A stretch of DNA of 64,000 bases from a virus (IMGVR_UViG_3300033069_001603:1003-65002); one strand, 5' to 3'. Positions 46,328 through 62,957 are shown, counted from the first letter of the stretch. Notes: generated by a model from the letters alone, not told the origin. Made by a program: numbers and translations.

Positions 46328-46597
46328 GTGGACGAAAAGATATTAATGATATTTAAACTTAAAGGGTGGGATATCCCTGTGTTCGTAGTGAATTATGTTG
46401 CCGTATATAAATTATTAATTTCGAATAATTTAAGCGTATCGTTCGAGACCGGTATAAATGGAAGATATTTCATAGTTGGCGATTTTCAGATATTCCCTTT
46501 GCATTCTCTTAAGGAAAATAGATACACTATTATAAGCCAGACAAAGGAAGTAGATGTCGACTTAAACAAGGTAATTAATTATGTTAACAAACGTTGA
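46328..46597 (+). CDS. LKLK array protein
   Basis: ILMIFKLKGW. Confidence 0.6.
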   Translation: MDEKILMIFKLKGWDIPVFVVNYVAVYKLLISNNLSVSFETGINGRYFIVGDFQIFPLHSLKENRYTIISQTKEVDVDLNKVINYVNKR

Positions 46598-46886
46598 GTT
46601 GATGCAACTAAAATTAATAGGTGTTGACGTTGCTGCCGACGACTTGTACAAACTAAGATATCTAAAACTATACAACGCTTTAGTTGCTGCCGGATACAAT
46701 CCAAAATACTTCAAAGACAGCGATAAAGGGGAAATTGGCTTTGGTTTTAAAATTGGCAACTGTAGAATTTGGCCATCGCACACCCATCATAATAATTACG
46801 GTGTTTCCAGAGGAAATATTTACGAGAGAAGTAATTATAGAGATTTACAAGATATAGTTAACCTTTTAAATGAACTACAGCGATAA
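46581..46886 (+). CDS. LKLK array protein
   Basis: ELMQLKLIG. Confidence 0.65.
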   Translation: MLTNVELMQLKLIGVDVAADDLYKLRYLKLYNALVAAGYNPKYFKDSDKGEIGFGFKIGNCRIWPSHTHHNNYGVSRGNIYERSNYRDLQDIVNLLNELQR

Positions 46887-47226
46887 TCACATGTTAGTAG
46901 ATTTGCACATCATGAACTTAAAATTAAAACATGGAGGTTTTAAAGGCGAGGCGGAAATATACCAAAACAACATTAGAAAATTACTCATACTTCTATTAGA
47001 ATTAAATATTCCTATTTCGTATTCCGAAGAATCCCATATTGGTTTCGTAGTAGAAAATGTCATAATATATTCTAAAACCATAGATATCACAATATATTGT
47101 AACTATGATATAATCGACGGGTACAACGTATACCCTGGTCGCATATTTAAATACCAACCCTGTATTGAGAGATCGATCAGTTTAAACAAAATAAAGGAGA
47201 TATTATGTCCCTTAACAAAGAATTAA
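46870..47226 (+). CDS. LKLK array protein
   Basis: IMNLKLKHG. Confidence 0.65.
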   Translation: MNYSDNHMLVDLHIMNLKLKHGGFKGEAEIYQNNIRKLLILLLELNIPISYSEESHIGFVVENVIIYSKTIDITIYCNYDIIDGYNVYPGRIFKYQPCIERSISLNKIKEILCPLTKN

Positions 47227-47486
47227 TGCTTCTTAAAATCAAGCACCCAACTATACACAAAAATACCTTTAGGCGGATAACATTGCTTAACTGTTATTTT
47301 GATATTAAAATTATAGAAGTATTATCAAATAACAACGTATGTTGTAGGGTGAAAGACTGTTGGTTTGGCGTAGCTTCGAAGAAGATCTACTTTAGGTTTG
47401 TAATTAACATCGGGAATGAGATTAAAATGACTAGCAGTATCAAAGAAGCGATAAAGTTGATTAATAGTGAAAGCCGAACATCTTAA
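47205..47486 (+). CDS. LKLK array protein
   Basis: ELMLLKIKHP. Confidence 0.65.
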   Translation: MSLNKELMLLKIKHPTIHKNTFRRITLLNCYFDIKIIEVLSNNNVCCRVKDCWFGVASKKIYFRFVINIGNEIKMTSSIKEAIKLINSESRTS

Positions 47487-47721
47487 GTTGAAGTACGGTC
47501 ATATCATAGAAAATAATATGATCGGAAACATAAACGATGTAATAGGTGTTTTTGGCGAGCCTACTAATATCTCAAGGTTTGCCGAAAATATCATTGAGTT
47601 ATGGTTCGACAATTTTAAAATTGCAATATATTACGGGAACTATCTGTATAGATACTGTTTATTAGTCAAAGACGAAGAAATACAATATGATAACAGCTTA
47701 ATTAGGATATGGGAAACATGA
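47467..47721 (+). CDS. LKLK array protein
   Basis: EHLKLKYG...FGEP. Confidence 0.65.
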   Translation: MKAEHLKLKYGHIIENNMIGNINDVIGVFGEPTNISRFAENIIELWFDNFKIAIYYGNYLYRYCLLVKDEEIQYDNSLIRIWET

Positions 47722-48035
47722 CAAGCAAGAATGCAATGATGCTAGTATTACGATACAACCTACATCCGGAGACAGCCGAAGCTTGCGCGGAATTTGAAGA
47801 ATTTCTAATTGAAAACAATATAAAATACAAAACGCATATCGCAAGAAAGAGAATCTCTTTTTTAGACGATTACCATAATGCTTTAATTTTCGCTATATGC
47901 GACAAATATCTCACTCCTTCGTTTAAAAGTGGGCGTTTCGAACTTCGAAGTAAAGGGTTAAATAAAGTATCAATAATATCAGAAGTTGCAGCAAAACAAA
48001 TGGCACTAATGGAGTCTTATAAAAATGACAGCTAA
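47709..48035 (+). CDS. LKLK array protein
   Basis: AMMLVLRYN. Confidence 0.65.
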   Translation: MGNMTSKNAMMLVLRYNLHPETAEACAEFEEFLIENNIKYKTHIARKRISFLDDYHNALIFAICDKYLTPSFKSGRFELRSKGLNKVSIISEVAAKQMALMESYKNDS

Positions 48036-48315
48036 AGCCATGACATTAAAAATTAAATATCCTTTTCTTAAAGAAGAAGACATTACTTTATTCTTGCCTA
48101 TTGTAGATATTTTTGATCAACTACATATTAAGTACCATTGCGGCGAAGGTTTTCACGGACGTTATGTGGGCGACGAATACACCCATATATACAACGTAAG
48201 AGGTCAGTATAAAGTATTCGTTAACGGAGGTAAAAATATAAAATCGGAATACACAACTAATGAACGTAAAATGGAAATAATCAGAGATACAATCAGAGAT
48301 AACCATGCAACCTGA
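48025..48315 (+). CDS. LKLK array protein
   Basis: AMTLKIKYP. Confidence 0.65.
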   Translation: MTAKAMTLKIKYPFLKEEDITLFLPIVDIFDQLHIKYHCGEGFHGRYVGDEYTHIYNVRGQYKVFVNGGKNIKSEYTTNERKMEIIRDTIRDNHAT

Positions 48316-48592
48316 TACCTACAGAATGATGATTAAATTAAAACATAATACTGACTTAAAAGCAGAGTACAACGTCGAAAGCATCATACTACTGGAAAAA
48401 GAATTAACTAGGAATAATATATCATATAATGTATATTATTCGACTGACGGCTTGTTTTATTTTACAGTTGGTGAAATTTCACTTTTCCCTGTTATGTCTA
48501 ATTGCGGGTTTAACATATACAATAAGAGAGTGAGACTTAAGAGCACAGCCGATGTCGATTATGTAATTAAGTTTATACAAAATCATGTTTAG
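48305..48592 (+). CDS. LKLK array protein
   Basis: MMIKLKHN. Confidence 0.65.
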   Translation: MQPDTYRMMIKLKHNTDLKAEYNVESIILLEKELTRNNISYNVYYSTDGLFYFTVGEISLFPVMSNCGFNIYNKRVRLKSTADVDYVIKFIQNHV

Positions 48593-48911
48593 GCAAATAT
48601 CAAAAGAAGCAACCTTAATTAAGTTACAGCACGGCTGTCCTAGAATTGCTGCCAAACAGGTTGCACTAGTTAAAACCTTCGTTGATATCTTAGACGTATC
48701 TATTGCGGGTAAACAATCATACCTAACATTAGACTTAAGATATTCTATAATAACAAACAGCAACAGAAAATATAAAATCTTAAGGCTTGACAATTACGGT
48801 AACATCGATGTTTTTGTAAGTTCTTATTCTTTTAAATTTGTACTTGGTCACATGTTAAAGCATAACTATTTAAAGAAGTTCGTGAAATGCACACCGACAT
48901 CTACAAAATGA
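48585..48911 (+). CDS. LKLK array protein
   Basis: ATLIKLQHG. Confidence 0.6.
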   Translation: MFRQISKEATLIKLQHGCPRIAAKQVALVKTFVDILDVSIAGKQSYLTLDLRYSIITNSNRKYKILRLDNYGNIDVFVSSYSFKFVLGHMLKHNYLKKFVKCTPTSTK

Positions 48912-49168
48912 TGATTAAATTAGAAACGGGGGAAGAGTTAAACCCGCACCTTCTTGTCGAACAAGTAATTGATTTTGAATCTAGATTAAACAATAATAAC
49001 ATACCTTTCTCGCGAAGTTTAGCAGATAGTATATTGGGTTTTCACGTAGACAAATATGTTATTTACCCCGTAATACAAAGAAAAGGTTTTAACTTATATT
49101 TGGACAGTATGCGAATTTATAACTGTGTTACTGTCGAAGAAGTAATGGAGTTATTAAGTGAAAGTTAA
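48887..49168 (+). CDS. LKLK array protein
   Basis: MMIKLETG; similar to 48305. Confidence 0.65.
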   Translation: MHTDIYKMMIKLETGEELNPHLLVEQVIDFESRLNNNNIPFSRSLADSILGFHVDKYVIYPVIQRKGFNLYLDSMRIYNCVTVEEVMELLSES

Positions 49169-49514
49169 CAAAGAACTTAACAGCAGAATAAGAAAAGAAG
49201 CAATGGCTATAAAATTAGTACACAATATGCCGAAGTATGTATGTCTTAGAGCAGCAATTATAATTCAGGTAGGCGGCATATCAATTGATAATATGAATGT
49301 AGATGGCGAGTATATTGATTTTACAGTAAACAACAATACAGTAATATCCGCTACGGCTTCTGACGATTTTGATAATTATTATCAACGATCAATGTACTGC
49401 GGGTTCGACGATTCATTGTCTTCTTTACGTGACGGAAGCAAATGTATGGTCTATGTATCGTTTAAAATAATTTTTAAATTATTACAAGAGAGAATAGAAA
49501 ACAATGTCAACTAG
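49158..49514 (+). CDS. LKLK array protein
   Basis: AMAIKLVHN. Confidence 0.6.
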   Translation: MKVNKELNSRIRKEAMAIKLVHNMPKYVCLRAAIIIQVGGISIDNMNVDGEYIDFTVNNNTVISATASDDFDNYYQRSMYCGFDDSLSSLRDGSKCMVYVSFKIIFKLLQERIENNVN

Positions 49515-49776
49515 AAAAATGACATTGAAACTTAAATACGGCTTAAAGGACTGTTTGCTCGATCCTCTAGAATTAATAACGGATAAGTTCGGGGAACCGA
49601 AAAAAGTCATCGACCTTTACGGTCAAATACATCTTTATTATGATCAGTGCATAATTTTTTATAGAACTAGCTCAACATATAACGGAAATGTATACTTTTT
49701 TAATAAGCATATGGGATCCGTAACAAAAACAACATACAACATAAACGAACTTATATCTTGGATTGAACAAAGTTGA
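49504..49776 (+). CDS. LKLK array protein
   Basis: MSTRKMTLKLKYG...FGEP. Confidence 0.7.
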   Translation: MSTRKMTLKLKYGLKDCLLDPLELITDKFGEPKKVIDLYGQIHLYYDQCIIFYRTSSTYNGNVYFFNKHMGSVTKTTYNINELISWIEQS

Positions 49777-49801
49777 CAACTTGCCATTAATATGTTAATA
49801 T
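49773..49801 (+). promoter_or_regulatory. sigma70 promoter
   Basis: TTGACA-17-TAATAT. Confidence 0.7.
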
Positions 49802-49820: not shown

Positions 49821-50123
49821 ATGGATATACGTGCCCACTTAACCCTAAGAATTGGTAACTTTTCTGAACCGGATTTAAGCGACGATGTTCTTAAAGACAT
49901 ATACAGTATAATGTGCATACTAGATAGCGAAAACATCAAGTACGGAATTGTAGTCGACCACAGTGAATATTTAGACTGTGACACAGACAGATTCATTATG
50001 TTTATTGTTGGCAAAGACGAGCTATATATTACAGCAGAAGGGAAGTACCTTAGTAACATTGGATCTTTAAACAAAGAAGAATTCTTAGAGTATTGCCGTG
50101 AACAAAACAAAAATGTATCTTAA
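49821..50123 (+). CDS. LKLK array protein
   Basis: AHLTLRIG. Confidence 0.65.
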   Translation: MDIRAHLTLRIGNFSEPDLSDDVLKDIYSIMCILDSENIKYGIVVDHSEYLDCDTDRFIMFIVGKDELYITAEGKYLSNIGSLNKEEFLEYCREQNKNVS

Positions 50124-50370
50124 ACTTCTAGGTGCTGACAATTTCGAATTAGAAACATGGTACTGCCATTGGAATCAAGTTGAGCACCTCATGTTAACAC
50201 TCGGCGATAATAACATATCTTATATTTTTCGTATATCAGGTTTCAACCATGTGTACTTAGAAGCGAATGACAAGATGATATTTTTATCTTCCGATGGCCA
50301 CTTTATAAGTGGCGGTGCGATATATAATTCTGTCCCGGATTTATTAAAGGGAATTAAACGTGAACAATGA
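50098..50370 (+). CDS. LKLK array protein
   Basis: MYLKLLGA. Confidence 0.65.
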   Translation: MNKTKMYLKLLGADNFELETWYCHWNQVEHLMLTLGDNNISYIFRISGFNHVYLEANDKMIFLSSDGHFISGGAIYNSVPDLLKGIKREQ

Positions 50371-50656
50371 TAACTTAAAATCGCATCTTATTTTACTCGG
50401 TGTAAGTGCAGCCGAGATACAAAACAACTTCAGCTGTTTTTTAAGATTAGTTAATCTGTTAAAGAAGAAAAATATACAATACGATATATTAGAATACAAC
50501 AACGGATGGATTTGTGTACATTTCAACGGTCACTTATTATCAATGCACGACGGTATATATTTTGAAGTATCAGATTCTCTCCACCGAGGAGAGATTACAG
50601 AATTTAACGGCACATATACGCAACTTAAAAACATGTTGGATAAACTAAGTGATTGA
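50360..50656 (+). CDS. LKLK array protein
   Basis: SHLILLGV. Confidence 0.65.
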   Translation: MNNDNLKSHLILLGVSAAEIQNNFSCFLRLVNLLKKKNIQYDILEYNNGWICVHFNGHLLSMHDGIYFEVSDSLHRGEITEFNGTYTQLKNMLDKLSD

Positions 50657-50948
50657 ATTAATGTTACTTAAATTAAAATACCCTTTTTTAAACGATAGTA
50701 ATAAAGATATTATCGTACAAGTAATTACAGATCTAGGTGAACCCTTAGAGATAATATATTACCCGCATAGAAGAAATGATTTAGATTTCGTGTACGAATG
50801 GGGAACATTTCAAAGATACTTGAGCGAATTCAAAAGAAAAAACGATACACACGATAGTCATTATTATTCTTATCGTGGCGATCCCAGACTTTACCCGTAT
50901 AACTTAGCTATAACCGAAGGTTTTGAAAAATGTCAACTGCGAAGATGA
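50649..50948 (+). CDS. LKLK array protein
   Basis: ELMLLKLKYP...LGEP. Confidence 0.7.
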   Translation: MIELMLLKLKYPFLNDSNKDIIVQVITDLGEPLEIIYYPHRRNDLDFVYEWGTFQRYLSEFKRKNDTHDSHYYSYRGDPRLYPYNLAITEGFEKCQLRR

Positions 50949-51208
50949 TGTTTAAAGTTAAACATCCGACATTAACATCTGATGATATAGATGTTATATT
51001 TCAAGTATACGATTCTTTAGGCGACAATTGTATTATAGAAGTGCATAACCTTGCATGTATAATTAATTACGGTCCGTTTGCTTTAGTCTATAATCGAAAA
51101 ACAAAATACTACTATTCTAACATTCATTTTAAGTTGTCACTGGTGCTTTTAGATATTATAACAGAGTTAAAACCATATGTTGTCACCGACAAAAGAAATG
51201 TTACTTAA
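50930..51208 (+). CDS. LKLK array protein
   Basis: MSTAKMMFKVKHP. Confidence 0.7.
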   Translation: MSTAKMMFKVKHPTLTSDDIDVIFQVYDSLGDNCIIEVHNLACIINYGPFALVYNRKTKYYYSNIHFKLSLVLLDIITELKPYVVTDKRNVT

Positions 51209-51446
51209 AATTAAATATGGCGACATGCCTTACGGTGTGTATGATGACATATTGTATATTATAGAGGAACTGGGCGAACCAGATGACATAACATTTCAAG
51301 GAAATGACAAAATTAAATTTAAGATGCACTACGGCAAATATGCTATAGAAAGATATTATACGGGTTATAGTCATAGTCGAACCTTGAAGTTTATGAGTAT
51401 ATATGAAACAATTGAGGATTTTAAAATATGTCAACTTCAGCAATGA
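51177..51446 (+). CDS. LKLK array protein
   Basis: EMLLKIKYG...LGEP. Confidence 0.7.
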   Translation: MLSPTKEMLLKIKYGDMPYGVYDDILYIIEELGEPDDITFQGNDKIKFKMHYGKYAIERYYTGYSHSRTLKFMSIYETIEDFKICQLQQ

Positions 51447-51721
51447 TATTAAAAATAAAGTATCCTGCTTTTCCACCTATGTATTTTAGCGACTTAATTA
51501 AGATAGATGCTTTTGCAAATAAACATAACCTTAACATAGTCATTCAAACCGCCACGCGTGGATGGTCATATGTAGTTCATTTATATTACAGCAAACAGCA
51601 TAAGAATTATATTGCGCACGGAAAACAATCGAAAAATTATACTTGTCACGGCAATAACTTTTCGTATTCGCTCGAAGACATTCTAGCAGTGATAGAGAAA
51701 GATTTATGTCAACTAAATTAA
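51428..51721 (+). CDS. LKLK array protein
   Basis: MSTSAMILKIKYP. Confidence 0.7.
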   Translation: MSTSAMILKIKYPAFPPMYFSDLIKIDAFANKHNLNIVIQTATRGWSYVVHLYYSKQHKNYIAHGKQSKNYTCHGNNFSYSLEDILAVIEKDLCQLN

Positions 51722-51969
51722 TGATGCTTAAATTAAAATATCCTAATTTAAAAGAATGCAACTTTGATTTTGCATTAACTGTTATTGGGGAATTAGGCGA
51801 ACCTTTAAAAGTAACTGATGATCTTGACTGGTGTCGATTACATTACGGAAAAGGTACACAAATACAAAGATTCAACCTCGACGGAAGGTATAGTTACAGC
51901 AGTTCTACTAGGTTTTGCAACCTACAACAAGCAATAGACGTTTGTAAAGAAAAATTAGGTATAGTTTAA
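51706..51969 (+). CDS. LKLK array protein
   Basis: MSTKLMMLKLKYP...LGEP. Confidence 0.7.
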   Translation: MSTKLMMLKLKYPNLKECNFDFALTVIGELGEPLKVTDDLDWCRLHYGKGTQIQRFNLDGRYSYSSSTRFCNLQQAIDVCKEKLGIV

Positions 51970-52235
51970 TGTCAACTTACGCAATAGCAGCAAAGCTTAA
52001 ATATAAAGACCTACCAGAGAACGTTCTCGATAACGTTGGACGAATATTGTCTGCTGCTGGCGAACCCGTAGGGGTAGAATACGACTACCGCCACAAGACA
52101 TTTGATATGTTCTACAACGAAGATAGAACAAAATATATAATTGTATTTTTTTCGGGGCGGATAGCAATACGGAACCGAGAAATTACAGAAGATTTAAACG
52201 ACATAATAGATGTCATAAGGGGGTATCGTGAATAA
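51969..52235 (+). CDS. LKLK array protein
   Basis: MSTYAIAAKLKYK...AGEP. Confidence 0.7.
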   Translation: MSTYAIAAKLKYKDLPENVLDNVGRILSAAGEPVGVEYDYRHKTFDMFYNEDRTKYIIVFFSGRIAIRNREITEDLNDIIDVIRGYRE

Positions 52236-52530
52236 AACCGAAGAGATGGTATTAAAGATTAAATATCCAGATGTACCGCATTATTTTTTACGGGAATACG
52301 GTTTTCTCACCTCTGTATTCCCAAACAGCCGACACGACATAAGAGTTGAAGGAAAAAGTTTAAGTTTACATGTTTGCTTAGAAAATATGTGCATTGAAGT
52401 TACAATTAAACGCAACAATCTTTATACTAACTATATAACACACGATTACAGAAATGAATCGCACAGAACAATTGAGTTCTACCATTTTAAAGAACATTTA
52501 CTGGGCATTGTATGTCAACAGAATCAATGA
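52228..52530 (+). CDS. LKLK array protein
   Basis: EMVLKIKYP. Confidence 0.7.
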   Translation: MNKTEEMVLKIKYPDVPHYFLREYGFLTSVFPNSRHDIRVEGKSLSLHVCLENMCIEVTIKRNNLYTNYITHDYRNESHRTIEFYHFKEHLLGIVCQQNQ

Positions 52531-52787
52531 TATTAAAATTAAAGTATCCTATGATACCATCTTCTATATGTGATAATATATCCGTGTTATTTAATTCATT
52601 AGGGGAACCTAAAGAAATACACTACAATCGAAATGTAATACAGTTCTTTTACGGCGACAGGTTTGTTTTTGAATACTGGGTAATGCGGGAAGAATATTCA
52701 CACAATTTCATGCTCAAGTACGATGACTTTCATACCGTACTTGATAATTTTTGCAGATACACGGATATTAAATGTCAACCGAATTAA
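52512..52787 (+). CDS. LKLK array protein
   Basis: MSTESMILKLKYP...LGEP. Confidence 0.7.
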   Translation: MSTESMILKLKYPMIPSSICDNISVLFNSLGEPKEIHYNRNVIQFFYGDRFVFEYWVMREEYSHNFMLKYDDFHTVLDNFCRYTDIKCQPN

Positions 52788-53056
52788 TGTTACTTAAATT
52801 AAAATATCCCGTAAAGGATATATACATTGCTGACTTGCAATACATTATATCCGAGTTAGGTGAGCCAGAGATGTACTCGCAAACAAATGGCAGACTAATG
52901 TTAATATATAGTGTATATTTTGATATTAGGTTATACGATTTAACAAAAGGCAACCAATATAAATATACTGGTTGGGGTTGTACTTCTACTAATAACTTAG
53001 ACGATGTACTAAAGGTAATAAAGAAAAAATTATATGCCAGCAAAAATGGTATTTAA
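52772..53056 (+). CDS. LKLK array protein
   Basis: MSTELMLLKLKYP...LGEP. Confidence 0.7.
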   Translation: MSTELMLLKLKYPVKDIYIADLQYIISELGEPEMYSQTNGRLMLIYSVYFDIRLYDLTKGNQYKYTGWGCTSTNNLDDVLKVIKKKLYASKNGI

Positions 53057-53306
53057 AATTAAACATCCAACATTGACATCTGACGAGATAGATGTTATAT
53101 TTCAGGTATACAATATACTTGGAATTGGCACACTACATGTATCGGAAACAATGTACACAATAACATATAATAACATGTTTAGTTTTGTTTGCCATAGAAT
53201 TTTTAAAGAATACGCAAGTACAGAGGGCTCGGGTGTCACCGAAGACCCGCATGTTATAATTGAAGAGATCCTGCTATGTCAACAGAAACGATGCTACTTA
53301 AATTAA
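53034..53306 (+). CDS. LKLK array protein
   Basis: MVFKIKHPTLTSDEID. Confidence 0.7.
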   Translation: MPAKMVFKIKHPTLTSDEIDVIFQVYNILGIGTLHVSETMYTITYNNMFSFVCHRIFKEYASTEGSGVTEDPHVIIEEILLCQQKRCYLN

Positions 53307-53536
53307 AACGTCCCGATATTAAAGAATATGCATTGTCTCCGATTTCTGAGATGTTAAAGATACTTGACATTACCGAAGTTATAATAGACTCGAACAAAGC
53401 AAGGACACTGTTAATGTATAAGGGTACAACTTTTCAAATATTTCCAAACAAATCTTTTAGTTGGTATGGTTACCCTGATATAGTTTACAACATTAACCAG
53501 TTAATGCAGCTATGGCAAACATGTCAACTGAATTAA
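53276..53536 (+). CDS. LKLK array protein
   Basis: MSTETMLLKLKRP. Confidence 0.7.
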   Translation: MSTETMLLKLKRPDIKEYALSPISEMLKILDITEVIIDSNKARTLLMYKGTTFQIFPNKSFSWYGYPDIVYNINQLMQLWQTCQLN

Positions 53537-53799
53537 TGATGCTTAAATTAAAATACCCCGTCAGTGAAGTTTACTTAAAGAGCCTAGACTGTATTGTTAA
53601 TGCACTCGGCGAACCCGATATGTATATTGAATCAAAAAACAAACTTGTTATAAGGTACGGGCATAACGGAAGGTACTATGATATAAGAATATATTGCGAG
53701 TCTGACAATACTTTGACTTACATTTGTCACGGAGCACATTGTAGAAATTTAAATTTTGTCATACGTGCAATGACGGGGAATTTATGTCAACTGAATTAA
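53521..53799 (+). CDS. LKLK array protein
   Basis: MSTELMMLKLKYP...LGEP. Confidence 0.7.
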   Translation: MSTELMMLKLKYPVSEVYLKSLDCIVNALGEPDMYIESKNKLVIRYGHNGRYYDIRIYCESDNTLTYICHGAHCRNLNFVIRAMTGNLCQLN

Positions 53800-54089
53800 T
53801 GTTGCTTAAATTTAAATACTGCTTCTTATCGGAAGAAGAATTAATATTTGTACAAAAAGCCGTAAAGGATTTAAATTGTGGCGAATCATATAGGGTTGAA
53901 ATAAATCGAGAAGTAATAGAGATAATATATGAGAACATTGGATTTCAAAGATATAATTGCGGTGACGTTTACAAGTATTCGACTTGGTATAGTCCAATGC
54001 TTCTCAATTACGACGATGCAATAAATAAGTTCAAAGAATTGTATAAACGTGGTGGTGCACCAGAGGAAATAATATTCAATGAAGGCTGA
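53784..54089 (+). CDS. LKLK array protein
   Basis: MSTELMLLKFKY. Confidence 0.7.
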   Translation: MSTELMLLKFKYCFLSEEELIFVQKAVKDLNCGESYRVEINREVIEIIYENIGFQRYNCGDVYKYSTWYSPMLLNYDDAINKFKELYKRGGAPEEIIFNEG

Positions 54090-54357: not shown

Positions 54358-54362
54358 CTTAT

Positions 54363-55233: not shown

Positions 55234-55262
55234 TTGACAAAGCGACTAACGTGTGCTAAACT
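55234..55262 (+). promoter_or_regulatory. sigma70 promoter
   Basis: TTGACA-17-TAAACT. Confidence 0.7.
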
Positions 55263-55294: not shown

Positions 55295-55735
55295 ATGCAT
55301 CGGGAAACTACATTAAACGCCAGAACATATCACATTCATATGTTTCGTTATACTCACTTTAACGGTACGAAATGCTGGATTACTACAAACTATAAAAACC
55401 CACAATTCGAAACATACTACGAAATTCACCATGTTTTAAAACATACCTATTTAAAACACGAACTTACGGTTAATTCCAAACTTAAACATAAGACAACTCA
55501 AGCTATATTAAATGATTTAATTAAATACGTTGCACCAACGCATATTAAAAACATCCAGTATAATTATTACAAAATTGATATAACCCAGATAGAAACAGTA
55601 AATCACTTCGAAAATATGCTCCGCCGATATATAAATACCGACCCACTAGTACATGTGGGAAATTATATACATAAACGTGTATCCACTATACAACATTACA
55701 ATGGCATCATATTTAAAAACGGTGTAGTAGTATGA
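55295..55735 (+). CDS. Hypothetical His/Tyr-rich protein (no LKLK motif)
   Basis: 146 aa, first gene after promoter. Confidence 0.55.
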   Translation: MHRETTLNARTYHIHMFRYTHFNGTKCWITTNYKNPQFETYYEIHHVLKHTYLKHELTVNSKLKHKTTQAILNDLIKYVAPTHIKNIQYNYYKIDITQIETVNHFENMLRRYINTDPLVHVGNYIHKRVSTIQHYNGIIFKNGVVV

Positions 55736-55998
55736 CCGCCGCATCAATAATATATAAACTTAGGTACGGACACAACTACTTCGAAAAGTTCTACCCTGTG
55801 ATGGATATACTTGACAACCTTAACATTCCATACAGTATATCCCAAGGCGGTAACTATTTAATCTTAAATGGCATGACATTGGTTATGTCCGACGATCGCA
55901 AAGTAATCTTTGTTATGGATACTAAAAAACCATCTACACTTCTTACATTAGAAGAATTTAAAATATATATGGATAACCTATGCACAGCCAATACTTGA
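55732..55998 (+). CDS. LKLK array protein
   Basis: IIYKLRYG. Confidence 0.65.
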   Translation: MTAASIIYKLRYGHNYFEKFYPVMDILDNLNIPYSISQGGNYLILNGMTLVMSDDRKVIFVMDTKKPSTLLTLEEFKIYMDNLCTANT

Positions 55999-56276
55999 TG
56001 CTGTTTAAACTTAAATACAACTTGTCAGATGAAAAGGCAGCGTATTTCTACGATTTACTTATGCTGATATACGAACTCAATCTCGACTTTAAACCTGGAT
56101 CAATCAAAGAAAGCGATATACTGTCTGCTTGCTATATAGGCAACAAACATATACATATATATAAAGAAGGCAATTTCAAATACTCAGTTTATAAAAAATC
56201 AATTAGAATTGGATCAACATACACATTAGATGAACTTAGGATACTTTTAAATGAAACAATTACACATGTACTTTAA
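55980..56276 (+). CDS. LKLK array protein
   Basis: LMLFKLKYN. Confidence 0.65.
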   Translation: MHSQYLMLFKLKYNLSDEKAAYFYDLLMLIYELNLDFKPGSIKESDILSACYIGNKHIHIYKEGNFKYSVYKKSIRIGSTYTLDELRILLNETITHVL

Positions 56277-56571
56277 AATTAAGTACAATATCCGTTCACC
56301 CGAGTTAGAATTCTTTATGCCTGTGTTTATGGCATTCCACAACCTTAATAAACCGATAACTGTGTATCCAACATCATCGTCTGATTCAAATTACTGTATA
56401 TTATTTAAAAAAGACAACTACGAATTGTACATTACGAATAAGGACAACGTCCTTAATTTACAATCATCGTCACCTATGTACCTCGTGTCAGAATACAATA
56501 GTACAGATTTAATAAACGGAAAGATCCACCATATGAATATACAGGACTTACTATGCAAAATAACGAACTGA
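56251..56571 (+). CDS. LKLK array protein
   Basis: MYFKIKYN. Confidence 0.65.
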   Translation: MKQLHMYFKIKYNIRSPELEFFMPVFMAFHNLNKPITVYPTSSSDSNYCILFKKDNYELYITNKDNVLNLQSSSPMYLVSEYNSTDLINGKIHHMNIQDLLCKITN

Positions 56572-56819
56572 TATTCTACATACTTAAATACAACGCAAAA
56601 GAAGAAATGATAATCCAATTATACGACGCGATTAAACTCTTCGAACGGAATGATATCATCTTTACCCTCCACACAAATAATGCAAGACTGAGTAATAAAC
56701 ATTATATAAGGTACAACAACACACATATATACAATGAACACACAAAGTATGCACTGTATAAAGATCAAATGATATGGCGGACCGCCACACTAGAAGAACT
56801 AATAAAGGTATTAACATGA
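56553..56819 (+). CDS. LKLK array protein
   Basis: LIFYILKYN. Confidence 0.65.
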   Translation: MQNNELIFYILKYNAKEEMIIQLYDAIKLFERNDIIFTLHTNNARLSNKHYIRYNNTHIYNEHTKYALYKDQMIWRTATLEELIKVLT

Positions 56820-57127
56820 ATAATCAACTGATATTCTACAAACTTAAATACGGTGCAGTCCCAACTAAAACCATAAGGAAATATATTATATGGCTTGATA
56901 TCCTCAACGAATATAACTTCCCCGCGACTTTTACAATTAGTCCCCCATCACCAGAATACTACTTAAAATATGTATCAAAAAATCTTGTTATGTTTATAAT
57001 TTATAATAGCTGCAATCGAGTTAATGTTGGAATATACAGTAATACATCTACATCGCGACACTTTACATTAGACGAAACTAGATTTAAACTATTACTTAAG
57101 AAAATAAAAGATGAATACAAATCTTAA
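56816..57127 (+). CDS. LKLK array protein
   Basis: LIFYKLKYG; start moved to ATG 56816. Confidence 0.65.
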   Translation: MNNQLIFYKLKYGAVPTKTIRKYIIWLDILNEYNFPATFTISPPSPEYYLKYVSKNLVMFIIYNSCNRVNVGIYSNTSTSRHFTLDETRFKLLLKKIKDEYKS

Positions 57128-57333
57128 AGCACATCTTATGCTACTTGGTATAAGCAAAGAAGAAATGAAAATAACTTTAATACAGATAAATTACTTAAAA
57201 CAAAGAAATATACAAACAACAGTGGATCGTAATAGAATTTAACTTACAACACGACAACAAATACTTCGAAATCGAACAATCCGTACATAAATGCAAACCC
57301 TCAGAATTACTTGGCTACTTAGAAGATATTTGA
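57111..57333 (+). pseudogene. Frameshifted paralog of ORF 50360
   Basis: MNTNLKAHLMLLG..., TAA at 57240; next frame NLQHDNKYFEIEQSVHK matches SMHDGIYFEVSDSLHR. Confidence 0.65.
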
Positions 57334-57550
57334 AACAACTGGTATACTATAAACTTAAATATATCACAAATCAATATTGATAACTATACTCGACTCCATT
57401 AATGATACTTTTACAATACATACTAACAGACAAAGGGATCAAACTTATATTAGAACTAATATTTACAAAGACCTTGTACATAGTAAGATGTATATATTAT
57501 TATATAGAGGCAATATTAGATATGATTACATTATGGCTGCTAATGAATAA
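57330..57550 (+). pseudogene. Frameshifted LKLK array gene
   Basis: TTG start LKQLVYYKLKY, then ~60 open codons in another frame. Confidence 0.55.
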
Positions 57551-58080
57551 TAATCATCTATATTAAGGTATATACATATAACAGTGTAAACGTATACTGA
57601 TTATGTACGAAACGGTGTTGTGTAGAGTACGTTAAAAAGCTGACTCTATTAGCGGGTAAAATTGACATTATTAGACATTATTAGAACGTAGGGTAGTAGC
57701 AAAAAACATATGGTAATGGTGTTATAATATACCAACTTCTAAACAATAACCGTAAGAAATCAACACCTTAGTAAGAAGATGTAAAAATTCACCGTAATCA
57801 AACGGTATATTTAAAAAACCTACCATATAAAAGGTAGTCTAAACCATTGTATAACAATATTCTGTAATACCATTTCTTTTAATATTTCAAAACCGTATCA
57901 ATTATAGGAGATACTCATCTTTATGTAAAAGGGTATGATCAACAGCAGTGCCTTCACCTTCAACAATTGTTCTTAAAGTTTAACCCCGATCCCGTAGGGA
58001 GGTATTATAAAAGTAACAATCTATTAGTATTCAGTGTAATCAAAGAGTCTAGCATACAAATTATAGACTTTCATTCTAAC
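57470..58080. other. Putative replication origin or genome-end junction (GC-skew switch, ORF-free)
   Basis: C>G to the left, G>C to the right with genes on the same strand; 10-bp tandem repeat, ACCGT motifs, hairpin. Confidence 0.55.
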
Positions 58081-58081
58081 C

Positions 58082-58110
58082 TTGACATAGTGTATAAAAT
58101 ATGTTAAAGT
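58082..58110 (+). promoter_or_regulatory. sigma70 promoter
   Basis: TTGACA-17-TAAAGT. Confidence 0.7.
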
Positions 58111-58158
58111 AGTTGTATTACATGTTTATTTATCATTTTTATTTCAAATGGATTAATT

Positions 58159-58443
58159 ATGTCCGTAGAAGTTAATAAAATGCTGTTACGTATTAAGTAT
58201 CCAACTTTTCCAGTTGAGTATTTAGATGATATGTATCAAGTTGAGCGTATAGGTGGAGTAATCGCTGCGGAATATTCGCCGTGGTATGCTAGTTATTATA
58301 TATTTCAATTCACATATAACAGTCAGAAATATAAGATAGAGAGGAATTGTGATTTTTTAAAATTAATTATTATGTCGCGGAATATGATATTATTTCGTTC
58401 GATTGAAGAATTAATAGGTGTGTTATGTCAACTTCGGCAATGA
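58159..58443 (+). CDS. LKLK array protein
   Basis: KMLLRIKYP. Confidence 0.7.
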   Translation: MSVEVNKMLLRIKYPTFPVEYLDDMYQVERIGGVIAAEYSPWYASYYIFQFTYNSQKYKIERNCDFLKLIIMSRNMILFRSIEELIGVLCQLRQ

Positions 58444-58694
58444 TGTTCAAGCTTAAATATAATTGTGTTTTAGTTAATAGTTACCTCGACGATATTAATT
58501 ATATAATTAAAAAATTAGGTGAGCCTGTACAAATAAATTACTCTAATAGTATATATTTAATGCGTTATAATAGTTCGGATTCTGTTAGTATAAGGTATAT
58601 AAGAATATTCGATCTTAAAAAATACATATTAAGATATGATTCTACGTATTGTGCTTTAACAAATGACATCGACCGTGCAATAAGGGGTGTGTAG
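58425..58694 (+). CDS. LKLK array protein
   Basis: MSTSAMMFKLKYN...LGEP. Confidence 0.7.
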   Translation: MSTSAMMFKLKYNCVLVNSYLDDINYIIKKLGEPVQINYSNSIYLMRYNSSDSVSIRYIRIFDLKKYILRYDSTYCALTNDIDRAIRGV

Positions 58695-58958
58695 ATGTCA
58701 ACTGAAGCGATGATATTAAAGATTAAGTACAATATATTAGAGTGGGCAATCAATGATGTTAATCGAATCATATCAAACTTAGGCGAACCTATTAGTATTG
58801 TATATAATAACAATTATTATACTTTGCATTATCTAGAAGGGTATATTATGTTATTTGATTTTAAATTTGGTTATGGCTTAAGATATTCTGGTCATGCCGA
58901 TGAATTAACTGATGATTTGCTTTCGATAATAGGTAGAATATGTCGACTTCGGAAATGA
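58695..58958 (+). CDS. LKLK array protein
   Basis: MSTEAMILKIKYN...LGEP. Confidence 0.7.
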   Translation: MSTEAMILKIKYNILEWAINDVNRIISNLGEPISIVYNNNYYTLHYLEGYIMLFDFKFGYGLRYSGHADELTDDLLSIIGRICRLRK

Positions 58959-59191
58959 TGTTGAAGATTAAGTATGGGATATCGCCGTGGGCATCGGCTG
59001 AGTCCATCCGTATTTTATCTGCATTAGGCGAACCTATTAGTGTTGAATGTCGAGAAAATAACTATATTTTATATTATCTAGAAGGGTATATTAGGATCTT
59101 TAATACTGAATTTAGCTATAAGTTAAGATATTCTAGTTATAATGCTGGTTTAACAGGTGACTTAGATGAAGTATTGAGGAAATTTAGATGA
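58940..59191 (+). CDS. LKLK array protein
   Basis: MSTSEMMLKIKYG...LGEP. Confidence 0.7.
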   Translation: MSTSEMMLKIKYGISPWASAESIRILSALGEPISVECRENNYILYYLEGYIRIFNTEFSYKLRYSSYNAGLTGDLDEVLRKFR

Positions 59192-59478
59192 CAGTTGATT
59201 CGATGATATTAAAAATAAAGTATCCCGATGTGCCGGATCATATTGTAGATATAATTGAGCATATTAAATCTATATCAGTATACGAATGGGAATATCGGAA
59301 GAGTAAGGTATATGAAGATGTGTATTCTTTGTGGCACGATGATTTCTATATTAGGATATTTGATGATCCTGTTATTGTATACGATAGTTGCATTGATGCT
59401 GAAGAAAACGATTTAGATTATGTTTTAAGTAATGCAGAGATGCATATTGGAAGTAGAAAATGTCAACTTCGGCAATAG
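59188..59478 (+). CDS. LKLK array protein
   Basis: SMILKIKYP. Confidence 0.7.
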   Translation: MTVDSMILKIKYPDVPDHIVDIIEHIKSISVYEWEYRKSKVYEDVYSLWHDDFYIRIFDDPVIVYDSCIDAEENDLDYVLSNAEMHIGSRKCQLRQ

Positions 59479-59711
59479 TAAGTAAGTTAAAATACGGGGT
59501 AGTTATACCCGATCAATTTATACCTGATGCTGAGAAGATTATATCTGAATTGGGTAGGTATAGTAGTATAAAAGTGGACAGTGAAGGTGTAGTTATGTAT
59601 TACGGTTGGAGTAATATTATCATATTATATAAAGGTAGATATTCAACGCCTTATTGTGGGTCAGTATATAGTTTAGATGTTGCAATAGATTCGATGCGTG
59701 GGAGGATATAA
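59460..59711 (+). CDS. LKLK array protein
   Basis: MSTSAIVSKLKYG. Confidence 0.7.
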   Translation: MSTSAIVSKLKYGVVIPDQFIPDAEKIISELGRYSSIKVDSEGVVMYYGWSNIIILYKGRYSTPYCGSVYSLDVAIDSMRGRI

Positions 59712-60011
59712 GTGTCAACTGAAGCGATGATGTTGAAGATGAAGTATCCGATATTTTCTAATAATGTATTAGGTAATATGGTTATTTTATTTCGTGAAGT
59801 AGGTGAACCAGATAACATCATGTATAATGATCATTCTGAAAGGTTCCAATATGTTAGTATCTGGTACGGTTCGATAGTATTTCAATATAGGGAAGACAAT
59901 AGGTATAACGACGATGATATGATATATACGCACTCTGGGTTAGGTGAGTATTGTTATTTTTGGGATGCGTTAGAATCGTTTAAGGAGTTAAGATGTCAAC
60001 TGAAGCAATGA
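59712..60011 (+). CDS. LKLK array protein
   Basis: GTG start, STEAMMLKMKYP...VGEP. Confidence 0.7.
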   Translation: MSTEAMMLKMKYPIFSNNVLGNMVILFREVGEPDNIMYNDHSERFQYVSIWYGSIVFQYREDNRYNDDDMIYTHSGLGEYCYFWDALESFKELRCQLKQ

Positions 60012-60268
60012 TATTAAAGATGAGATATGGTTGTGAGTTTGATGACATATCAAGGGCAATAGATGCTATCGGCCAATATCCTGAGAAGATAACAAAAGAT
60101 GAGTATCATTGTAAGATATCAATGTTTTACAATAAAGACATTGTGTTTCAAATATTTTATAGAAAAGCAAGAACCAAAAACGGATATAGTTATTACGGTG
60201 GAGGTATGTGTTCTTTTAATAAAGCCGTAAGTAGAATAAGAGAGAAATTATGTCAACTTCAAAAATGA
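59993..60268 (+). CDS. LKLK array protein
   Basis: MSTEAMILKMRYG. Confidence 0.7.
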   Translation: MSTEAMILKMRYGCEFDDISRAIDAIGQYPEKITKDEYHCKISMFYNKDIVFQIFYRKARTKNGYSYYGGGMCSFNKAVSRIREKLCQLQK

Positions 60269-60519
60269 TACTCAAACTTAAATACAATGTGTCGGATGAT
60301 TTATTACATTCGTTAATACGCATTATAGATGCGTTAGGTGAGCCTATTAGTGTTGAGTTTCCTATGAGCGACATAATGTATGTGTATTACAGTGAGGGCA
60401 TACGTATAGAGAGATATAACAATGCCAATTCATACTCGATTAAAAGTTACAGTGGCTTTATGTGTTTTGATGATGCCGTACGTGAGATAAAAGGGCAATT
60501 ATGTCGACCTCAAAATTAG
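60250..60519 (+). CDS. LKLK array protein
   Basis: MSTSKMILKLKYN...LGEP. Confidence 0.7.
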   Translation: MSTSKMILKLKYNVSDDLLHSLIRIIDALGEPISVEFPMSDIMYVYYSEGIRIERYNNANSYSIKSYSGFMCFDDAVREIKGQLCRPQN

Positions 60520-60761
60520 TATTTCGATTAAAATACAGTGATATACCTTTGCGATATGTTGACGATGCATATGTTTTTGTGTGTGAGTTAGGCAATCCCC
60601 TTAGGTATATAGTTGATTTAAATGGATATGGCGGTGTAATATTATATTACAATAAGGACAGTGTAGTGCTTTACGCATTGGGTAGATATATTAATCATTA
60701 TTGCGCTTATAAATATGACGGTGGCGATATTAGTATGGCAATTGAGTCTCTAAGAGATTAA
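60501..60761 (+). CDS. LKLK array protein
   Basis: MSTSKLVFRLKYS...LGNP. Confidence 0.7.
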   Translation: MSTSKLVFRLKYSDIPLRYVDDAYVFVCELGNPLRYIVDLNGYGGVILYYNKDSVVLYALGRYINHYCAYKYDGGDISMAIESLRD

Positions 60762-60766
60762 TAATC

Positions 60767-61054
60767 ATGTCAACTATAGAATTAGTATTTAAGTTAAGAT
60801 ATGGTGTTGATATCCCTAGTTGGTGTATAGATGATGTTAATTTTGCAATATTATCACTTGGGTATCCTGACAAGATCACGTATTATAAGGGAGTCTCTGC
60901 TTTAGTTGACTCTAGTTTGTATATGTATTATGACATGTATACTGTATTACAGTTATATGAAAATAAGGCGTACAGTTGTTTTGCTAAAGGTTATATGCGT
61001 ACATTAGACGAAGCAATAAGTCGTATAAAGGAACAGTTATGTCAACAGAATTAA
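60767..61054 (+). CDS. LKLK array protein
   Basis: MSTIELVFKLRYG...LGYP. Confidence 0.7.
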   Translation: MSTIELVFKLRYGVDIPSWCIDDVNFAILSLGYPDKITYYKGVSALVDSSLYMYYDMYTVLQLYENKAYSCFAKGYMRTLDEAISRIKEQLCQQN

Positions 61055-61299
61055 TGCTATTAAAATTAAAGTGTCCTATGATACCACCCGAAGATCATAG
61101 TAATATGTTAATTTTATTTCGTGAAGTAGGTGAGCCGGATTATGCTGATGCCGATGGTTATGTATTATTGTTGCATTACGGTAAACATCTGTTTGAGTGT
61201 TACGGTAGTCATAGACGATATTCAACTAATGAATCGGAATATTATATGGAATTTAAAGATGCGTTAGCATTATTTAAAAAGTCGTTAGGAAGAAAATAA
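61039..61299 (+). CDS. LKLK array protein
   Basis: MSTELMLLKLKCP...VGEP. Confidence 0.7.
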   Translation: MSTELMLLKLKCPMIPPEDHSNMLILFREVGEPDYADADGYVLLLHYGKHLFECYGSHRRYSTNESEYYMEFKDALALFKKSLGRK

Positions 61300-61610
61300 T
61301 GTTAAAATATATACGTAACAAAGCAATGATGTTAAAGTTAACGTATCCAGGATTAGAATTCCGAGAGGAAGCGCGACGAGCCGCAATAGTATCTATGTTT
61401 TTCACTATAGAAGATATCAAAGACGGTGCAATCGTAGACATTGGCGGCGATTACAGTATAGACATAGGGATAGTTAAAGGTTATTCAATTTTAGATGATG
61501 CCCACAATTATCCTTATGTTTTATATTATATGGACGAGGATATAGCAATGTCTTATAGTATAAAAGATATGATAGAAGCATATGAGATACATGCCCCGGA
61601 TGATATATGA
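61299..61610 (+). CDS. LKLK array protein
   Basis: AMMLKLTYP. Confidence 0.7.
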   Translation: MLKYIRNKAMMLKLTYPGLEFREEARRAAIVSMFFTIEDIKDGAIVDIGGDYSIDIGIVKGYSILDDAHNYPYVLYYMDEDIAMSYSIKDMIEAYEIHAPDDI

Positions 61611-61894
61611 TAACATTAAGAGAAGTATCTCAACGTGCAATGTGTTATAAATTGCAATATGGTCTATGTTACCATGAATCTAGGCGATTAGCTTTAATAT
61701 CGATGTTCTTCAGTATAAAAGCAGTAAAGCGTAATTTAGCAATAGTAGGGGATCATGAGATTGATTTTTGTTATGTTGGCGGCAATAATATAATGGGTGT
61801 GGCTTTAGAGCCATATTATTTATATCGGAGCGGCGAAGACGAAGTTATACTAACAACGTATCGATTAAAGGATATAGCATGTCATCTGAATTAA
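61607..61894 (+). CDS. LKLK array protein
   Basis: AMCYKLQYG; paralog of 61299. Confidence 0.7.
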   Translation: MITLREVSQRAMCYKLQYGLCYHESRRLALISMFFSIKAVKRNLAIVGDHEIDFCYVGGNNIMGVALEPYYLYRSGEDEVILTTYRLKDIACHLN

Positions 61895-62166
61895 TGTTAC
61901 TTAAAATTAAATACGGGGATATTCCGTCTTGGATTGCATTTGACCTTGAAAAAATAAAATCAGTATTAGGCGAAGATTGCGTATTAACAGCAATTGGCAA
62001 AAACTACTATACTTTAATTTATGACGAATTATATATTACAATCTACGATGTGATTAATTTTGGTTATGCATACAAATACACAAGTACGGGTATCGGTTTA
62101 ACAGATGACTTAGATAGAGTCATAGCAACTGTAAAGAAGCTTATGTTATGTCATCCGCAGCAATGA
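61879..62166 (+). CDS. LKLK array protein
   Basis: MSSELMLLKIKYG. Confidence 0.7.
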   Translation: MSSELMLLKIKYGDIPSWIAFDLEKIKSVLGEDCVLTAIGKNYYTLIYDELYITIYDVINFGYAYKYTSTGIGLTDDLDRVIATVKKLMLCHPQQ

Positions 62167-62447
62167 TATTAAAGTTAAAGTATCCTTATTTTCCAGCTAA
62201 GTATCTTAGCGATTTTACAAAAATATCAGATGCATTTAGTTGCGGTAACGGTTACACTGTTGAGCCAAAACTAAAAACTTTATTTTGGGCATACGTAGTC
62301 GAAATAAAGTACAACGACAAATACGTTGACTATATTGCATTGTATCAAAGCGTGGAAAAGTATACAGTCCAAGGTAATAATTACTTTAACGACCTTGACT
62401 CGGCAATTAACTTTTTATTGGTTAAAACATGTCAACTTCAAAAATGA
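62148..62447 (+). CDS. LKLK array protein
   Basis: MSSAAMILKLKYP; paralog of 51428. Confidence 0.7.
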   Translation: MSSAAMILKLKYPYFPAKYLSDFTKISDAFSCGNGYTVEPKLKTLFWAYVVEIKYNDKYVDYIALYQSVEKYTVQGNNYFNDLDSAINFLLVKTCQLQK

Positions 62448-62740
62448 TGTTTAAAATTAAGTACCCTGATTTTCCAGAAGATGTCATCGATGATTGTGTA
62501 TATGCAATATCGATCTTAGGAGAACCGCATAGTGTATATATATTGAAAGAGTGGTATGGATTACATTACGGAAAAGCGAATTATTTTGCAATAACACTTG
62601 ATATTTTTGGTCATAGAAGTTACACGGGTTTAAATCTAAGTTATTATACAAAAATCGAAGAAGTAGTTCATTTAATAAAAAGAGGTATTGAAGGTGACAA
62701 TACAACATATGGTAGCAAAGATTCGGGGAGTCCCCGTTAA
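62429..62740 (+). CDS. LKLK array protein
   Basis: MSTSKMMFKIKYP...LGEP. Confidence 0.7.
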   Translation: MSTSKMMFKIKYPDFPEDVIDDCVYAISILGEPHSVYILKEWYGLHYGKANYFAITLDIFGHRSYTGLNLSYYTKIEEVVHLIKRGIEGDNTTYGSKDSGSPR

Positions 62741-62957
62741 CTTATTAAATGATTATAATGAGATTACTGCTAAGATAAACCAGCCATATGATCTTTATAT
62801 ATTTAAAAGGGAACAAGTGAGATTAGAATATAAAAATTTCACTATTTGTATACTGCCCGATAACCGTTATGCATTTAAATATGATACTGCAACCGACAGA
62901 CAACATTTATATCCAAAGTATAAAAGCGAATTGTATTTTTTAGCAAAAGTAACTTGA
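62688..62957 (+). CDS. LKLK array protein (divergent)
   Basis: HMVAKIRG. Confidence 0.55.
   Translation: MKVTIQHMVAKIRGVPVNLLNDYNEITAKINQPYDLYIFKREQVRLEYKNFTICILPDNRYAFKYDTATDRQHLYPKYKSELYFLAKVT

Follow-up and report, generated by a model that had tools for sequence, protein, structure and literature searches.

Why should some 55 small genes stand head to tail in a single viral genome, and why should so many of them open with nearly the same 40 nucleotides (nts)? The question is raised by a 64,000-nt stretch of viral DNA (hereafter the window), corresponding to positions 1003-65002 of the 65,002-bp IMG/VR record IMGVR_UViG_3300033069_001603, in which positions 46328-62957 are occupied by a tandem array of short genes. 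An earlier note on this DNA had proposed that the conserved block at the gene starts punctuates an accordion-like library of cassettes. Our analysis points elsewhere: the array is likely to be an ancient, promoter-headed and translationally coupled tandem multigene family, specific to one lineage and kept under purifying selection, whose products are probably early host-interaction binders.

The array spans 16.6 kb and consists of 56 consecutive open reading frames (ORFs) on the + strand, in agreement with the roughly 55 same-orientation genes counted before. These ORFs encode 83-118 aa, with the exception of g55295 (146 aa), and nearly every one overlaps its predecessor, by 1-53 nt. Only three true intergenic gaps are present, at 49777-49820 (44 nt), 55232-55294 (63 nt) and 57128-58158 (1,031 nt). 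With ~55 copies, the family fills roughly a quarter of the 64-kb window and is among the largest phage tandem families seen. The parts of the array are listed below.

46328..62957, + strand: whole tandem array, 56 ORFs and one truncated copy (ORF chain, jackhmmer, profile)
46328..49776, + strand: run 1, 12 genes, mostly subfamily B, in which an L-x-NNI-x-Y turn replaces LGEP
49821..55231, + strand: run 2, 20 genes, mostly subfamily A (MST..M.LKLKYP ... LGEP)
55295..57127, + strand: run 3, the 146-aa g55295 (a weak and uncertain member) and five subfamily-B-like genes
57111..57242, + strand: truncated 43-codon copy (MNTNLKAHLMLLG...), a decayed paralog opening the 1-kb spacer, recognized from its sequence; a 43-aa gene is called here in relatives
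57128..58158: 1-kb spacer, holding no family genes except the truncated copy at its start
58159..62957, + strand: run 4, 18 genes, chiefly of the MST type and overlapping by 16/19 nt; coding strand markedly G-rich

Several lines of evidence indicate that the array is built from one protein family. A jackhmmer search with a single seed (g52772) against all ORFs of the window recovered 46 array genes and two ORFs outside the array, and a profile built from all members matched 54 frames, a test that is circular. When separate profiles were made from 28 'MST/LGEP' members (A1) and 16 'NNI-x-Y' members (A2), hhalign aligned the two over their full length (probability 97.4%, E 1.2e-11), which bears out the earlier suggestion of one family with a constant N-terminus and an LGEP motif. 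The copies are highly diverged (~24% mean column identity). AlphaFold2 models of one member per subfamily, with predicted local distance difference test (pLDDT) scores of 93.9 and 94.4 and a predicted template modelling score of 0.83, have one topology of ~90 residues: helix, helix, five strands, helix (alpha-alpha-beta5-alpha). The M-x-L-K-L-K-Y-P segment, which had been taken for a separate tag, is helix alpha-1 of this confidently modelled domain in both cases (pLDDT 88-92), and LGEP is the turn joining alpha-2 to beta-1. Thus, both conserved motifs are predicted to be structural elements of a single domain.

The family is also dispersed across the genome, since at least two of the ORFs outside the array are clear whole-length members. 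An N-terminal x-L-K-L-K-Y/G motif was observed on up to eight small ORFs outside the array, including these two.

39219..39497, + strand: dispersed family member (core-profile E 2.4e-6 for the frame segment from 39186; jackhmmer 3e-14)
42991..43317, + strand: dispersed family member (MSTVDSRILYYKLRYP...; jackhmmer 5e-12; N-terminal motif)
139-423 (- strand), 8253-8630, 9290-9553, 9522-9932 (- strand), 31265-31576 and 38652-38969: other small ORFs bearing the N-terminal motif

Relatives of the family were sought widely. An exhaustive hidden Markov model search of 1.84 billion cluster representatives gave 29 real matches, all of them the source phage's own genes or alleles except one protein (P0025), which was located on two contigs of the European Nucleotide Archive of 547 and 522 bp (relatives L026 and L027). 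Word-indexed searches with A1 and A2 returned only the source phage's own proteins; Pfam and PHROGs gave nothing usable for ten members; with 10 kb of the array as query, megablast found no match among 50,697 phage records, a set that may lack records close to this genome; and DNA pattern scans for the block in viral and metagenome contigs produced chance single matches only (a cyanophage transaldolase region and two other contigs). As judged by these sequence searches, the family is an orphan restricted to one phage lineage.

The copies are old and have been kept. For comparison of strains we used 25 contigs or contig fragments from assemblies of the Joint Genome Institute (JGI) and Logan (L009-L025 and L034), all 99.2-100% identical to the window. 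Single-nucleotide polymorphisms (SNPs) among strains comprise 38 nonsynonymous and 34 synonymous changes at a site ratio of 4.09:1, giving a ratio of nonsynonymous to synonymous polymorphism (pN/pS) of ~0.27; together with the 56 intact frames, against one truncated copy and one allele with a premature stop, this shows that selection has preserved the copies, which are no decaying repeats. Synonymous sites are near or past saturation even between the closest paralogs (synonymous divergence, dS, from 0.9 to >2), so that no recent duplications are present and the array is old. A trace of local duplication can still be seen: the adjacent gene is the nearest paralog in 10 of 55 cases, against 2.0 expected (the maximum of 2,000 permutations was 10), and the nearest paralog lies no more than two positions away in 17 cases, against 4.0 expected. 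Some genes are mosaics. The pair g50930 and g53034 is 85% identical across 75 nt that span the two N-terminal helices and cannot be aligned beyond, and g51428 and g62148, discussed below, are a second example.

How are these genes joined? The ATGTCAAC-type start pattern RTGTCRDC-N7-WTR has 25 matches on the + strand, every one at the start of an array gene, compared with 1.57 +/- 1.45 (maximum 5) in shuffled sequences; the shared start block reported for about 25 genes is therefore real. We anchored each junction on the conserved hydrophobic residue of M-x-L-K-L-K-Y. At 21 of the 55 junctions the stop codon of the upstream gene overlaps the conserved Met codon (Met6), 15 nt into the next gene, either as TAATG (nine junctions, 16-nt overlap) or as ATGA (12 junctions, 19-nt overlap). 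This placement of the stop on the next gene's Met codon accounts for the ...CQLN*, CQLRQ* and CQPN* tails, just as had been noticed. One short stretch at a junction thus holds the end and stop of the upstream protein together with the ribosome-binding site, start codon and first helix of the next, for example:

53777..53823, + strand: junction block with a weak Shine-Dalgarno (SD)-like GGGG, ATG1, MSTEL, the upstream TAA on the conserved ATG (Met6), and LLKFKY

BLAST of the array against itself yielded 65 high-scoring segment pairs (HSPs) with a median span of 0 to +37 relative to ATG1; in the central 80%, starts fall at -7 to +15 and ends at +31 to +56. Identity in the 45 longest listed is 70-95%. 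These spans show that the described length of ~40 nt for the block is correct. Nearly all of the HSPs lie in the block, which is almost the sole nucleotide homology between copies. Of the array's 44 exact direct repeats of >=14 nt, about 36 also fall within it (longest 26 nt), the rough chance expectation for such repeats being 2-3.

Is the block conserved beyond what its coding requires? We compared synonymous-codon identity in each alignment column with the expectation from array codon usage. From Leu8 onward (L-K-L-K-Y-P) the observed values are close to the expected ones, for instance 199 vs 219 at the Lys column 11 and 133 vs 148 at the Tyr column 14; the excess is confined to codons 2-5, with 232 of 276 pairs identical at Ser2 against 57 expected, and 128 against 80 at Thr3. 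In a simulation that fixed the amino acids of each gene and resampled the codons, mean nucleotide identity was 0.611 +/- 0.008 for codons 6-14 (observed, 0.614) and 0.445 for codons 2-5 (observed, 0.632). In codons 2-5 the upstream frame is still running, so that no base there is synonymous in both frames. Conservation of the block is mostly explained by ordinary coding and initiation constraint, and DNA-level selection for recombination is not needed. Three causes would then act together: selection on helix alpha-1 (M-x-L-K-L-K-Y-P), dual coding plus initiation signals in codons 1-5, and descent of all junctions from a single head-to-tail one by rounds of unequal crossing-over in the distant past. 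The block is the best substrate for recombination between copies, yet this suitability looks like a by-product and not the reason why the block exists. A general caution follows for similar loci, as a conserved DNA block at gene starts may be explicable almost wholly by protein and overlap constraints.

Candidate promoters are found where the array is interrupted. The sites reported at 49773, 55234 and 58082 proved to be genuine consensus matches located in the three gaps, all with a perfect TTGACA -35 element, a 17-nt spacer and a TG-extended TAAnnT -10 element:

49773..49801, + strand: sigma70-like promoter TTGACA-17-TG-TAATAT, heading run 2 in the 44-nt gap (consensus match only)
55234..55262, + strand: sigma70-like promoter TTGACA-17-TG-TAAACT, heading run 3 in the 63-nt gap
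58082..58110, + strand: sigma70-like promoter TTGACA-17-TG-TAAAGT, heading run 4

Taken as a class, promoter-like matches show no enrichment in the region (111 vs 107.5 expected), and the promoter argument therefore depends on placement and similarity. Further matches of this kind occur just past the array, at 62954 and 63249. Run 1 has no promoter-like gap in front of it and is probably a continuation of an upstream transcript. Inside the runs, no convincing + strand terminators were detected, and the junctions have no stem-loop terminators. Each run except the first would thus be transcribed from its own sigma70-like promoter, probably as a long early-type polycistronic message. Within a run, SD-like purines (AAGGAG, AAGGAA, GGAGG) form the last codons of the upstream C-terminal helix (...IKEQL...), and the predecessor stops 16-19 nt into the next gene. 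Given this position of the SD-like sequence and the stop on Met6, translation of neighbouring genes is probably coupled. RNA structure at the starts is slightly less than background, a non-significant difference (p = 0.086).

What might such proteins do? About 55 diverged copies in the array and two dispersed ones would each form a compact ~90-residue alpha-alpha-beta5-alpha protein, and predicted isoelectric points range from 4.4 to 10 across members, which indicates diverse surfaces. We infer from the size of the genes, the placement of the promoters, the diverse surfaces, purifying selection and analogy that the family may be an early-expressed repertoire of small binders, in which diversified surfaces on a common scaffold would serve host takeover or counter-defence. 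The array could serve as a test bed for two questions, namely whether families of tiny proteins act as anti-defence binder repertoires and whether conserved gene boundaries steer recombination.

A number of observations sit less comfortably with this account. Several of the best paralog pairs are 21-36 genes apart, a spacing for which simple local duplication gives no account. Use of the promoters, early timing, coupling and the choice of start codon are all read from the DNA. At four junctions without overlap (g51969, g58695, g59712 and g60767) TCA ACT is nevertheless kept, and dual coding alone may be insufficient for codons 2-5; RNA-level or initiation constraint, or some gene conversion, is possibly involved there. 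Nine block pairs are >=85% identical in codons 6-14, a mild excess over the 2.2 expected, and the proportion of synonymous differences (pS) between g51428 and g62148 is 0.22 in the first 15 codons vs 0.80 afterwards, a low early value that hints at occasional conversion. Structure searches also gave little help. Neither model had a match at E<=0.001 when Foldseek was run against the PDB and a viral library, and a PDB profile search gave nothing below E 0.6; the best structural alignment was to the C-terminal domain of Mediator Med17 (Z 7.0 and 7.3 for the two models, with a noise guide of ~8 for the tool). VIA-align Z values for the T4 MotA C-terminal domain (5.1/6.4), the TriTu immunity protein (4.6/6.3) and AcrIIA11 (5.3/4.6) are likewise all below the noise level of ~8. 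The ESM Atlas gave zero feature matches, and its structural neighbours (template modelling score <=0.54) are of unknown function. These matches are middling and non-specific, and no functional conclusion is drawn from them.

The strain contigs bear directly on whether the array is mobile. Twenty-four of the 25 are collinear with the window, ungapped and 99.5-100% identical, and apparent differences in gene length among relatives are due only to alternative start-codon calls. Contigs from four sequencing runs, belonging to four studies, that cover 46000-63500 contain no joints, the only indels being a 3-nt insertion and a 1-nt deletion; because assembled contigs drop rare variants, this result leaves room for rare rearrangements. 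In four related contigs, a C>T change at window position 58237 puts a stop codon in place of Gln27 (Q27*) in g58159, the gene that opens run 4, and this allele implies that the gene is dispensable or decaying in part of the population.

A single variant contig (L015) differs in structure. It lacks window positions 61033-61557 (+ strand), exactly 525 bp and in frame, with the result that g60767 is fused in frame to the tail of g61299 and g61039 is lost. Its identity to the window is 99.2% on one side of the breakpoint and 99.96% on the other. The crossover took place at GTATAAAGGA / GTATAAAAGA, in the codons of the C-terminal helix, where there is an imperfect microhomology of 10 nt. Both breakpoints lie outside the block, one of them 7-16 nt upstream of an ATG block and the other ~45 nt upstream of the following one.

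A more distant view is offered by the divergent 547-bp contig L026. Here a g61879-like gene (54 bits; next best 33) stands directly before a g60767-like gene (65 bits; next best 43), and the latter is followed by a cassette that does not resemble g61039. Over 100 nt, the g60767-type junction has 80% identity. The tail of the g61879-like protein reads ...ICR* instead of ...CHPQQ*, in step with its new neighbour; upstream tails are indeed set by the start of the next gene, as the note had claimed. The contig is too short for breakpoint mapping. On a long timescale, then, the array does change in both order and content; on the timescale sampled it is static.

With these data the cassette hypothesis can be weighed, according to which the block is retained as punctuation for integrase-free recombination and whole cassettes are duplicated, deleted and shuffled intact to form an accordion-like effector library. 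It is supported only in part, and we regard it as unlikely. Its premise is sound in that an in-register crossover within the block would give intact cassettes, and the concentration of repeats and HSPs in the block, the many non-adjacent closest paralogs (e.g., g51428 and g62148, 34 genes apart), the changed neighbours around a conserved junction in L026 and the feasibility of in-frame unit loss in L015 are all in its favour. It also has precedents in the gene amplification and deletion of T4 via 6-10-bp microhomologies (PMC9391042) and in the shuffling at promoter early stem-loop (PeSL) elements of T4-type phages (PMC2839356, PMC4122927). Its operation, however, was not seen, and several parts of it are not supported when judged by the refuting conditions that the note itself had set. 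Gene order is fixed in the 24 near-identical contigs, although these strains are too close for a strong test of the cassette idea; the sole rearrangement observed avoids the block; all contigs but one agree in copy number, and there are no young duplicates (dS >= 0.9), which speaks against accordion-like expansion and contraction; and outside the overlap zone the block is conserved without any need for selection on the DNA. Exact identity tracts reach at most 26 nt, which is short for efficient RecA-type exchange. Gene conversion from paralogs was also considered as a source of the strain SNP clusters and rejected, as no donor tract was found elsewhere in the window. Separately, g59712 and g61039 have in common a 23-nt identical tract in the LFREVGE codons (59784-59806 and 61111-61133), and the g59712 copy shows three synonymous differences in other strains; this is possibly a short gene-conversion tract within the gene body.

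An extended form of the same idea would make the array a library of ~55 early proteins sharing one scaffold but diversified in surface, each directed against a different host target or defence, with the coding block doubling as an integrase-free recombination site at which, over evolutionary time, co-infecting relatives swap, lose or gain punctuated cassettes. This proposal seems rather improbable to us. If it were true, such a standing library with a recombining block would be the coding-sequence counterpart of the PeSL system.

Another alternative concerns the start codon. If translation began at the second ATG (Met6), the junctions would be ordinary ATGA/TAATG overlaps and the 'MST..' leader would be upstream C-terminal coding only. 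The upstream stop does lie on that ATG at 21 of the 55 junctions, a classic coupling arrangement, and automatic gene callers picked the second ATG for several copies in other assemblies. Nevertheless, this is quite improbable. Mean anti-SD pairing energy is -4.4 kcal/mol before ATG1 and +0.4 before the second ATG, against -1.4 for random background, so SD-like pairing is absent before the latter. Seven genes have ATA or TTA (one CTT) at the second-Met position and must therefore start upstream. In addition, ATGTCAACT is kept where the upstream gene ends earlier (g51969, g58695, g59712 and g60767), and third-position changes in codons 2-3 are synonymous in the downstream frame while altering the upstream tail (CQLN, CQPN, CRLRK, CQQN), a pattern which points to the downstream frame as the more constrained. 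ATG1 is thus the most likely start codon on present sequence evidence, with use of both ATG1 and the second ATG being possible.

That the conserved N-terminus is a detachable targeting tag is very improbable, even though its motif is carried by as many as eight small ORFs beyond the array: both models place the motif as a folded helix, homology covers the whole protein and not the N-terminus alone, at least two of the motif-bearing outside ORFs are whole-length homologues while no protein distinctly different in size or kind was seen to carry the motif, no T4-type protease site, (L/I)-x-E, follows the motif in the alignment, and the sigma70 promoters suggest early rather than late expression. 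The appeal of a tag lies in the combination of a constant N-terminus of ~13 residues with a variable body, which is reminiscent of the T-even internal proteins IPI, IPII and IPIII, diverse small proteins thought to act against host defence whose one common part is the conserved capsid targeting sequence (CTS; PMC3012670). In the T4 proteins only the ~10-residue CTS is common and is cleaved off, whereas the array proteins are homologous throughout the domain, with the N-terminus built into the modelled fold.

The multigene family that we favour has parallels in the literature, and the statement that no such architecture had been described was too strong. Large phages have repeatedly evolved big tandem families of tiny proteins of unknown roles. 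The jumbo phages G and 121Q carry tandem arrays of >30 similar genes (Hua et al. 2017, PMC5646251), and Bacillus phage G has a ~35-copy zinc-ribbon expansion (Iyer et al. 2021, PMC7824862). As in G and 121Q, one small gene has expanded head to tail in a single lineage of a large phage, the expansion is ascribed to tandem duplication, and the function of the family is unknown or guessed. The present array differs from them in being an orphan alpha-alpha-beta5-alpha family of ~55 copies with a conserved 16-19-nt out-of-frame overlap, and in the divergence of its copies, the genes of G and 121Q having been described as 'very similar'.

PeSLs are conserved boundary motifs at which small non-essential early genes of T4-type phages are shuffled without an integrase (2010, PMC2839356; Comeau et al. 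2014, PMC4122927). Like them, the block is a short conserved motif between small, probably early genes that combines an expression signal with homology available for integrase-free exchange. PeSLs, however, are intergenic promoter-terminator units flanking unrelated ORFans, and their shuffling was demonstrated by phage pairs and mini-circles; the motif of the array is coding (start, N-terminal helix and upstream stop), the genes on its two sides are all paralogs, and no recombination at the motif has been observed. The PeSL pairing of a promoter with a terminator stem-loop is absent, and promoter-like sites are present only in the three gaps. T4 provides a further comparison, with its segmental amplification and deletion via 6-10-bp microhomology known as 'accordion' behaviour (Srikant et al. 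2022, PMC9391042). The in-frame deletion of L015 at an imperfect microhomology resembles these events; the T4 repeats are young, identical and dosage-selected, while the array is ancient and diversified and has no young copies. What sets the array apart is the orphan family with its fold model, the number of copies, how deeply they have diverged and the junction with its conserved out-of-frame overlap.

The 1-kb spacer between runs 3 and 4 has several features of its own. It contains a dense patch of strain SNPs, and GC skew switches there from -0.14 to +0.33. Summed contig depth approximately doubles to the right of ~57.2 kb in three sequencing runs (from 6.9 to 13.6 in X1 and from ~3.5 to 6.5 in X5; X8 is consistent with doubling once whole-contig means are allowed for), and this step coincides with the skew switch and the spacer. 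A long terminal repeat with the right-hand sub-array, or a second strain sharing the right part only, could produce such a step. An alternative left flank at the spacer, as hinted at by the depth step and loose contig ends, was looked for with protein look-ups and set aside, since only collinear contigs were returned and the loose-end sequences matched none of the sequences compared. On the minus strand of the spacer, 57790-57929 contains a promoter-like TTTACA-17-TATAAT (11/12) followed, ~65-110 nt downstream, by two terminator-like hairpins; it could encode a small antisense or non-coding transcript, and no Rfam family matched this element.

With respect to the wider setting, CheckV estimated the completeness of the record at 42%. 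The source is an uncultured large phage, and considering this value and the 65-kb length of the record its genome is probably not of jumbo size. The window has a GC content of ~33% and encodes an rIIA homologue, an ATP-dependent DNA ligase, AAA ATPases and a tRNA-Ser gene. Even the best phage matches to its proteins are remote: for rIIA the PA5oct-like version has ~25% identity, and the closest relative of the ligase (48% identity) is in Pseudomonas phage hairong, which has no gene order in common with the window and in which a synteny check via the ligase found no comparable array. The two TnpB genes were considered as a clue to the host and set aside as uninformative, their only matches being cyanobacterial (43-45% identity). 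The other features of the window are the following.

2594-3796, - strand: TnpB / IS605 OrfB gene 1, with HTH_OrfB_IS605, OrfB_IS605 and Cas12f1-like TNB domains
37007-38218, - strand: TnpB / IS605 OrfB gene 2, with the same three domains
45876-46319: gene for a 147-aa protein with a signal-peptide-like N-terminus (MKRLILASLMLLPASLYA...), adjoining the array upstream and outside the family
63647-63893: group I intron just 3' of the array (Rfam RF00028, 52.8 bits, E 4.4e-11)

Metagenomes of rivers, fresh water and wastewater in four studies (2019-2025) contain near-identical DNA. At window position 63909, several Logan contigs from different samples come to an end, as if a branch point were located there.

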